Notes under the pieces: model-generated | Databases searched by the model: none | What the model saw: the letters and a program-made list of their open reading frames with translations, nothing else | Told to the model about the DNA's origin: nothing | Translations under genes and position numbers: made by a program | In this document: positions 3,971-12,917 of the stretch, one piece after another | Position numbering within the stretch: position 1 is the stretch's first letter | How the letters are laid out: each line of letters opens with the position of its first letter | Source of the DNA: an uncultured archaeon | GTDB lineage: Archaea; Asgardarchaeota; Thorarchaeia; Thorarchaeales; Thorarchaeaceae | NCBI GenBank assembly: GCA_964648855.1 | Contig: CAZYLT010000034.1 | Coordinates: 1 to 12,917 of the forward strand | DNA length: 12,917 bases | Direction: 5' to 3'

Positions 3971-4602
3971 TCAAGTGTCCCTTTTTATGAACAGGAATAA
4001 GTCAAATGATTGACTACAGCATCTCAATTTTCCGAAGACTATTTCGAAAGAACCATCACTTATGCATAATATTTAGAAGACAAACATGACTCGATTGAAA
4101 TTTCTTGGAACTCGTGCGAATACGGATGCTACTAGCCCCTATCATTCAAAACATTCGGGAATTCTTCTTAACGAGAAAATTCTCTTCGATTTGGGGGAAG
4201 ACGAGTTTCTTCAATATGAACCGGAAGTCATCTTCATAACTCATCTCCATCCTGACCATGCTGTCTTCATTCTCGAAGATATTGAGATAAAGGTACCAGT
4301 CTATGCACCTGAAGAGTCTGATGAGATTGAGATCAGGGTCATGCCTGATATTGTCGAACGTGAAACATGTGCGGTATTCTCAATACCGACAATTCATAGC
4401 AAATTAGTGAGATCACAAGTATATCTCATAGAAGGCGAACACAGGATTCTTTACACTGGAGATATGGTCTGGATCGAGAAGAAACATCATGATGCTTGTG
4501 GAGAACTTGATCTGGTAATCACTGATGGGAGTTTCCTTAGAGAGGGCGGTAGAGTGACGGGGGATAAAGAAGGCAGTATTTGGGGGCACAAAGGCATAAA
4601 CT

Positions 4603-4640
4603 ATTTCTGACAGATTGAGTGACCTCAACGTGTCTGAAAT
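4603..4640. repeat. Subterminal imperfect palindrome of the element
   Basis: ATTTCTGACA-GA-TTGAG-TGAC-CTCAA-CG-TGTCTGAAAT, with one mismatch in the outer stem and a 2x2 internal loop. Confidence 0.8.
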
Positions 4641-4750
4641 TTCTGTGTTCCACCCTTCCCCTGCCAGCGTCACCGCCCCCAGCGTACCCGAAGGCCACTG
4701 AGTCAGCAGGGGCTTTGTCCATGGTCATCGGGATGGTATCCCTCCCATGG
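4603..4750 (-). ncRNA. Putative structured RNA module within the element
   Basis: On the minus strand CCCCUGCU/GGCAGGGG closes a junction containing a cUUCGg hairpin and a GUGA (GNRA) hairpin. Several G-U pairs work only on the minus strand. Expression is not shown and boundaries are uncertain. Confidence 0.45.
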
Positions 4751-5407
4751 TCCTGGTCTCTTCCTCCTGTGTTGGTGCTGATGCATAACTCTCAGCCACA
4801 GCGAGGCTTTCCACAGTTCTTCCCACGGCGGGTTCATGATCACCCTTCCTGGCTCCGTCACCGAAGGCAGCAAGACTCGTCTGAGCATGGTGAACAGCCG
4901 CGGACTCTCCGGGAGATGATGTTCTCCTTTCCTTGGAGAGTAAGGACCTCCGTCAAGAAGTCGTGGACTTCCCTCAGGCTTTCGGCAGCGAGCTCCGCGA
5001 GATGTTGGTGGCCCACTCACCTAGTCCAGTAGTGAGTCTGACTGGGGCCATTTAAGCTCCCACAGAATTCATGGTGAGCACAGCCAGAGGAAAATCTGAC
5101 ACTTCTATTGGATAATTTAACTAGAAAACGAGGGGGTATTGCATAATTCCTGATTTGGTAGAGTTCTTCAAGCCTTATACAAATCATATTGTCTTTACGC
5201 ATCTAGGAAAATGGTTTTACGGAAATGCATCGGAATCCAGAAGAAAAGTAAAGTCATTATCAAGACAGGTACACATAGACCTCGCTTATGATGCAATGCT
5301 TCTCGATTTGGAATAGATTGGTTAAGAAAATCCATCCAAGAGCACTTTATCACAACAATCAAATCAATTCCCTTGTAACATACTCAAACACACTTGAGGA
5401 ATGAACG

Positions 5408-12424: not shown

Positions 12425-12874
12425 TCAGTTCCCAGACATCTCTCCAGGAGGGCAGTTTTCCATGAATTCAGATTTCAAGATGTCCATTACAATCGCATCC
12501 TCATATCTGCCGCCTGAATACATGTATTGTCTAATCTTGCCCATTCGTTTGAATCCGGCTTTTCTGTATGCTCTTTGAGCACGCTTGTTCGACTCCATAG
12601 TATACAAATGGATACTATTTAGCCCTAGTTCATGAAATCCTATCCAGAGGGTAGTTTCTGTGGCATCCGTTCCATATCCCTTTCCCTGTTGTGCAGGATC
12701 ATGTATTGCAATGCCAAACTCCGCATGCGAATTTTCCGGAGAGATTCGTGAGAGTCCCACAGTACCGAGGAATTCTTGAGTTTCTCTATCCTCTATCGCA
12801 AGAGTAAGATTGCCGTCCTTCCAAGGGGTTTCTTTTGTGGCTCTTTCAAGCCATTCTCGTTCATGTTCTCTAGA
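12425..12874 (-). pseudogene. RimJ/RimL-type GNAT acetyltransferase, N-terminus cut off by element copy 2
   Basis: Reads SREHEREWLERATKETPWKDGNLTLAIEDRETQEFLGTVGL...AEFGIAI...QQGKGYGT...NKRAQRAYRKAGF. Upstream of 12874 the sequence is element DNA rather than GNAT. Confidence 0.85.
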
Positions 12875-12917
12875 TAAACTATTTCTGACAGATTGAGTGA
12901 CCTCAACGTGTCTGAAA
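12874..12917. mobile_element. Second copy (terminal 44 bp visible) of the 4596-5145 element, truncated by the window end
   Basis: ATAAACTATTTCTGACAGATTGAGTGACCTCAACGTGTCTGAAA is identical to 4596-4639 and in the same orientation, with a different upstream flank (CTCTAG versus AAAGGC). Confidence 0.9.

Follow-up and report, generated by a model that had tools for sequence, protein, structure and literature searches.

A protein-less mobile element on the minus strand

The stretch of DNA analysed here (12,917 nt; hereafter designated the window) contains a 550-bp, MITE-like mobile element on its minus strand, and the region under study, 4603–4750, lies at one end of it, within an island of 57% GC in a genome of about 44% GC (Table 1). 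BLAST searches with wider flanks placed the ends common to the copies at 5144/5145 and 4596, with a 2-nt ambiguity (AT) that makes 4598–5147 equally possible. In the window's own 3.1-Mb assembly, 26 matches were found, and the genome carries more than 20 whole or partial copies of the element, many of them broken off at contig ends. The copies are young and similar to one another, with a mean column identity of 89%.

The site is empty in a genome of the same genus (G001), where the flanks abut as TCAGGAAT joined directly to GCCTTT at the position of the 550 extra bases in the window. The element splits a gene for a metallo-beta-lactamase-fold protein (window 4086–4610 on the plus strand and 5148 onward), which has 226–229 codons in G001 and 174 in the window, with the stop codon inside the element. 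For two other copies, the comparison was less informative: the site of the copy on contig C6 is rearranged in G001 and says nothing of the left junction, and the empty site for the copy on C8 runs into a contig end. The element is thus mobile and multi-copy, its insertion is absent from the sister genome, and its sharp ends, known empty site and lack of any intact gene are properties of a protein-less derivative.

Table 1 Features of the window, with target duplications at sister copies of the element
Feature	Position	Strand	Remarks
Protein-less mobile element, MITE-like, 550 bp	4596–5145	−	5′ end 5145, 3′ end 4596
Left-flank target-like motif TCAGGA	5148–5153	−	Host DNA; also at the empty site of G001
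Left-end subterminal repeat GTGTCAGA	5095–5102	−	1–3 copies in sister elements
TATA-like box TTAAAT	5050–5055	−	Begins at −28 relative to the conserved start of the RNA
Broken remnant of the last ~100 tnpB codons	4728–5030	−	49.5% identity (tblastn) to residues 514–613 of the TnpB on C19
Predicted omega-RNA scaffold, ~430 nt	4596–5027	−	Starts at near-invariant GGACUAGG (5027–5020); 19 helices
Module 1	4719–4750	−	Helix 4750–4746/4723–4719 around hairpin 4742–4738/4734–4730; 10/10 pairs compensatory in 42 homologs
Module 2, three-way junction	4658–4712	−	Closing helix 4712–4705/4665–4658; UUCG hairpin 4702–4678 (4702–4693/4688–4678); GUGA hairpin 4677–4666 (4677–4674/4669–4666); 15/17 pairs compensatory
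3′ strands of two long-range helices	4643–4654	−	GGU 4654–4652 with ACC 4757–4755; CACAG 4647–4643 with CUGUG 4816–4812
Terminal imperfect hairpin	4603–4640	−	z −5.0 in the window
Apical motif GGUCACUCA	4624–4616	−	Corresponds to GTTCACTCA of aCas1-linked TnpB loci
3′ arm of the hairpin, CTGTCAGA	4606–4613	−	Core TGTCAGA common to the left end
3′ flank, canonical position of a TnpB guide (predicted)	4576–4595	−	20-mer unique in the genome
Second copy of the element, last 44 nt	12874–12917	−	Cut by the contig end; CTAGA follows
Target duplication, copy on C8			CTAGA
Target duplication, copy on C56			GTAGA
Target duplication, copy on C12 of G006			CTGGA
Target duplication, copy on C19 of G006			TCTAGA
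Target duplication, copy in G021			CTTGA

Conserved helices in region 4603–4750

The first-pass annotation of this DNA had read 4603–4750 as three folded modules of a strand-specific RNA, and all three were recovered on the minus strand where it had placed them. In the first module, the GGGAU/AUCCC hairpin is enclosed by a helix that had been drawn as CCAUGG paired with CCAUGG; five of the six pairs stand, whereas the sixth (G4745–C4724) is not conserved and is unpaired in 10 of the 16 MITE copies. In the second, the 8-bp helix closes a three-way junction, of which both arms, with UUCG and GUGA loops, are present. The third, the terminal hairpin, stops 7 nt short of the element end at 4596. 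Folding was strand-specific: a 165-nt piece folded more stably than its shuffles only when read on the minus strand (z −3.6, against −1.2 for the plus strand). Moreover, two long-range helices (numbers 11 and 14 of the 19 described below), which are 99% paired and of which helix 11 covaries in all 5 pairs, enclose both internal modules. The region is therefore the 3′ third of an RNA of about 430 nt, roughly three times longer than had been described, and not a self-contained RNA; its helices are real.

Covariation among homologs, which had been named as the way to check the proposed structure, was analysed with a covariance model built on window 4590–4762 and run on 31 genomes of the taxonomic family. 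The motif occurs in 25 of them, with up to 78 copies in one genome (G012). Among 42 distinct homologs, 92.9% of the pair cells held standard pairs, compared with 35–44% when the partners were slid by 1–3 columns; the covariation score was 0.511 against 0.221 in shuffles, none of 500 reaching the observed value, and compensatory changes were found in 25 of the 27 pairs. The tetraloops and G–U pairs had been taken as signs of selection at the RNA level; the conserved G–U pairs form on the minus strand only (U4705–G4665, for instance, in 33 of the 42 homologs).

Since the 42-sequence alignment is itself fitted to the covariance model, the test was repeated with 33 full-length homologs (window 5027–4590) that had simply been aligned by MAFFT. 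RNAalifold gave 93 pairs in 19 helices, with 94.5% of the cells paired (39–44% in the slid controls) and compensatory changes in 69 of the 93 pairs; the fold of the 432-nt RNA had z values of −3.0 on the minus strand and −1.65 on the plus strand. A large part of the covariation signal is contributed by TnpB-linked copies, and the signal within the MITE lineage is modest: the 16 protein-less copies alone have 11 compensatory pairs, against 4.6 ± 1.6 in shuffles (0 of 500 reaching 11). Compensatory substitutions maintain the 19-helix structure of about 430 nt also in several protein-less copies whose tnpB frame is broken. For this RNA, Rfam yielded no relevant family, whether the gathering or an E-value threshold was applied.

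One pairing was rejected, namely that of GGGUGG with UCACUC, which RNAalifold had proposed on 14 sequences; on 33 sequences the stretch pairs with the upstream ACC and CUGUG. For a candidate pairing of the conserved 5′ ...GUGGG with the UUCACUC loop, no more than 4 bp are consistent, and the loop is invariant.

Relation to tnpB genes of the same genome

Diverged matches to window 4921–4636 (66–73% identity) overlap the 3′ ends of open reading frames of 558–613 aa, which carry the Pfam domains Cas12f1-like_TNB and OrfB_IS605. In tblastn searches, the tails of these TnpB proteins (the last ~100 residues) matched window 5030–4728 with 38–50% identity, and in the window copy the frame stops after 17 codons. 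At three intact TnpB reading frames, the homologous copies take in the final ~100 codons together with ~130 nt of the DNA beyond them; the RNA is present downstream of three of the four intact TnpB genes (558–624 aa) in this genome. The element is homologous to both the 3′ end of tnpB and the downstream RNA. It is therefore a TnpB element from which almost the whole tnpB gene has gone, whereas the gene's tail and about 130 nt behind it, the usual place of an omega RNA, have been kept. Together with the covarying structure and its persistence in copies with a broken tnpB frame, this homology supports the omega-type RNA, one of the kinds of RNA that the first-pass annotation had considered. Conservation as a protein remnant, which would have spoken against a structured RNA, cannot explain the region because most of it lies beyond the stop codon of the ancestral gene, at about 4728.

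Even the closest of the TnpB-linked RNAs of this genome share no more than 66–73% identity with the MITE RNA, and the only tnpB that adjoins an RNA of the MITE type (C1:207729–207875) is a pseudogene; we count both against the reading given below. The MITE shares its right end and RNA with the TnpB loci. Its left end was sought beside the intact aCas1–TnpB pairs of this genome and near left-end-like fragments on C4 and C2, and no link was found. The size and the tetraloops had also suggested a large ribozyme such as a group II intron, a reading rejected in view of the TnpB homology.

The intact TnpB genes, on C4, C19, C21 and C28, each stand head-to-head (divergent) with a gene for a giant protein of 1540–1830 aa, these giant proteins being paralogous; the pairing of TnpB with a Cas1 homolog holds for these four loci and not for the window copy. 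The RuvC-I and RuvC-III aspartates and the zinc finger of the intact TnpBs are preserved, and the RuvC-II glutamate is replaced by glycine, a replacement known from a published rearranged type of TnpB that is thought to stay active. Profile searches of Pfam, NCBIfam and PDB found nothing for the giant neighbour. A structural model of its first 470 residues (pLDDT 74.9) matched the catalytic helical domain of Cas1 in 31 Cas1/casposase entries, with Z scores of 9.6–13.4 and rmsd values of 3.0–3.7 Å over 145–191 residues, the next unrelated entry having a Z score of 6.9. As a Z score near 13 is not far above chance for helical models, it is the exclusive run of Cas1 matches that carries the argument. 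In this model, the N-terminus of the giant protein has the Cas1 fold.

A promoter-like box before the conserved RNA start

A near-invariant GGACUAGG occurs in every homolog, some 265 nt to the 5′ side of the region covered by the covariance model. Protein-less lineages have a TATA-like box 28–35 nt before this conserved start: in the window's lineage, an A/T hexamer (TTAAAT, ATAAAT or TATATA) stands at exactly −28 in 8 of the 8 copies examined, and two further protein-less lineages have a TATA-like TTATTA at −33 to −35. In the TnpB-linked copies, GGACUAGG lies inside the coding sequence, and nearly all of those examined lack an A/T box before it; the one with an A/T hexamer has it only at −19/−18. 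The spacing between box and start matches that of the archaeal TATA box, and the arrangement suggests a transcription start at about 5027.

The terminal hairpin and the element ends

A long imperfect hairpin occurs at this end of the RNA in most lineages; its stems differ, and its apical (G)UUCACUCA is conserved. The apical motif is near-invariant in 39 homologs. Downstream of tnpB in aCas1-associated TnpB loci, a GTTCACTCA motif has been described, preceded by a hypervariable region, between a conserved T and the motif, that was suggested as a possible guide (Altae-Tran et al. 2023, PMC10691335). In the present RNA, this hypervariable region is the 5′ arm of the hairpin.

The opposite arm has a different relation. 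Its core recurs in the subterminal repeats of the left end, and in the lineage of G003 and G044 the shared motif has been switched to TGAAATGT(A/T)AGA at both ends; single comparisons of this sharing are weak (p from 0.25 to <0.003), and the pattern is consistent. Because the 3′ arm repeats the left-end motif, a second role of the hairpin, as the transposon's right end at the DNA level, is probable. Given this likely role, its presence is weaker evidence for selection at the RNA level than the other helices are.

Target duplications

Among the eight copies with both flanks known, five have a 5-bp direct duplication, the sequence of which varies between copies (Table 1), and the copy on C20 has one with a single mismatch. 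All 14 left flanks seen have a T directly before the left duplication; the sister copies have T plus CTNGA at the left flank and CTNGA again at the right flank. The window copy and that on C6 lack the right-hand duplication, which also counts against the reading given below. Such a 5-bp CTNGA duplication fits integrase-type insertion. It does not fit IS200/IS605 transposition, which makes no target duplications. None of Y1 TnpA, a serine recombinase and an IS110 enzyme was found in the assembly, which is 94.6% complete.

As a separate observation, TCTAGCACTCTAGA occurs once in the genome (G000:C3:157281) and is the reverse complement of the flank pair TCTAGAGTG plus CTAGA found around young copies; this position may be an empty or excised site.

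Interpretation and alternative readings

In our judgement, the region is probably the 3′ third of the omega RNA of an Asgard aCas1-associated TnpB transposon, kept in a 550-bp, internally deleted, protein-less derivative. The element would then be a self-promoted omega-RNA gene that depends on a TnpB and a transposase encoded elsewhere, as has been proposed for PATEs (PMC10055086). Transcription would start from the TATA-like box, and a TnpB from another locus of the genome would bind the RNA in trans. The transcript would run past the element end, with the flank from 4595 downward acting as the guide; a guide in the 3′ flank, which the first-pass annotation had surmised, is the canonical expectation for TnpB. 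For the flank 20-mers, no second target was found in the genome. TnpB would cut empty alleles, and retention or spread of the protein-less element would be favoured in this way. The terminal hairpin would be the right end recognized, as DNA, by the transposase, for which the Cas1-like giant protein is a candidate; this tie to aCas1 is indirect, since no intact aCas1–TnpB pair was found to have the MITE left end beside it.

Alternatively, the element might be an inert relic, retained solely for its right end, which transposition requires in cis; the helices would go back to a TnpB-linked ancestor, and a functional RNA would be absent. The youth and similarity of the copies, which leave little time for decay, and the arm that the terminal hairpin has in common with the left end would agree with this. 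We nevertheless consider it unlikely, since about 430 nt are kept, far beyond the need of a transposon end; three protein-less lineages agree in the distance of a TATA-like box from the start of the RNA; compensatory changes are in excess among protein-less copies; and the pairing persists while the tnpB frame decays.

A bolder proposal extends the omega-RNA reading: the dispersed protein-less copies would form a library of trans-acting guides, each set by its insertion site, and in a stronger version the variable arm beside GUUCACUCA would be a genuine internal spacer. We hold this to be distinctly improbable. If the library were real, dozens of loci would come under the surveillance of a small number of TnpB genes, which would thereby drive the protein-less elements through RNA-guided homing; if the internal spacer were, the element would be a living intermediate between TnpB and CRISPR.

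The internal guide can also be taken by itself, as suggested in PMC10691335. The stretch 4635–4624, between ...GAAGUUUC and GUUCACUCA, would be spacer-like and the whole a one-spacer proto-CRISPR unit, and it does differ between lineages while both flanking motifs are nearly invariant. However, the stretch is base-paired to the sequence after the motif and the two arms change together: cognate arms pair better than foreign ones in 25 of 35 lineages, by a mean of −2.0 kcal/mol (Wilcoxon p about 0.001, the lineages not being independent). Moreover, about 15 copies, at separate loci of this genome, carry it unchanged, a genome-wide search allowing 2 mismatches found only chance-level matches elsewhere, and its 12–14 nt are short for a TnpB guide. 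The match of the opposite arm to the left-end repeats also points to a role at the DNA level, and we give this reading very little weight.

An IS110-type bridge RNA or an IscB-type (HEARO) omega RNA, which a structured RNA at an element end had brought to mind in the first-pass annotation, can practically be dismissed, as no DEDD IS110 transposase (PF01548) was found in the assembly, Rfam gave no match at the gathering or E-value threshold, and the RNA, collinear with tnpB, is placed 3′ of that gene rather than on the 5′ side of a gene for a recombinase or for IscB.

Comparison with known systems

The closest counterparts of the omega-RNA element favoured here are the aCas1–TnpB loci named Cas1H-Asgard-1 and -2 (PMC10691335), which likewise combine a TnpB with a giant Cas1 homolog in Asgard hosts (with homologs named as Thorarchaeota), have the RuvC-II glutamate replaced by glycine, and carry GTTCACTCA downstream of tnpB, separated by a variable stretch from a conserved T. 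Unlike them, the window copy is a deletion derivative of 550 bp that has neither gene and carries a TATA-like box of its own. In addition, no RNA structure is given in PMC10691335, where the variable stretch is treated as a potential guide; here it is an arm of a hairpin rather than a free guide. These loci of Asgard archaea are a published, uncharacterised link of Cas1 integrases to RNA-guided nucleases, and their RNA has not been defined so far. The present locus and its relatives provide a testable, covariation-backed model of a scaffold of about 430 nt together with a probable transcription start.

The omega RNAs (reRNAs) of IS200/IS605 and IS607 elements such as ISDra2 resemble the present one in overlapping the 3′ end of tnpB, reaching the right end and having a structured scaffold. 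Typical TnpB scaffolds are roughly 100–250 nt long, against about 430 nt here. The present family further differs in that neither a Y1 nor a serine TnpA was found in the genome and that sister copies have 5-bp duplications.

The protein-less derivatives of IS200/IS605 elements that are designated PATEs frequently carry an omega RNA on which proteins act in trans (Meers et al. 2023, PMC10055086). The present element is likewise multi-copy and protein-less, keeps the guide-RNA scaffold and would need TnpB and a transposase in trans; they differ in that here the parent family is linked to Cas1 rather than Y1 and a dedicated promoter box of archaeal type precedes the RNA. Self-promoted protein-less copies of this kind could serve as natural minimal guide-RNA genes.

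Further features of the TnpB loci

At the fourth intact TnpB (G000:C4:179290–181161, L050; 624 aa), which is paired with a giant Cas1-like gene, the downstream region does not align to the RNA family. A fifth giant Cas1-like gene, G000:C4:3–4259 (L089), stands at a contig start and has a stop or frameshift after residue ~1032.

The TnpB loci on C28 (L028) and C21 (L029) abut, immediately 3′ of their RNA, the 3′ end of an antisense tRNA-like sequence (...GGTCA followed at the junction by GGGCGCGGGAATCGAACC...), so that a flank-derived guide there would be tRNA-derived. Between the aCas1-like gene and tnpB, both loci have a unit of ~90 nt bracketed by two identical TATA-like boxes (CCTTAAATACTGC or CTTTAAATGGAT). 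This unit includes the GTTCACTC loop motif in reverse complement (GAGTGAAC), and that on C28 also contains GAGACAGGTCAG, identical to the right-end terminus. The unit might give a second, small transcript or mark an internal end.
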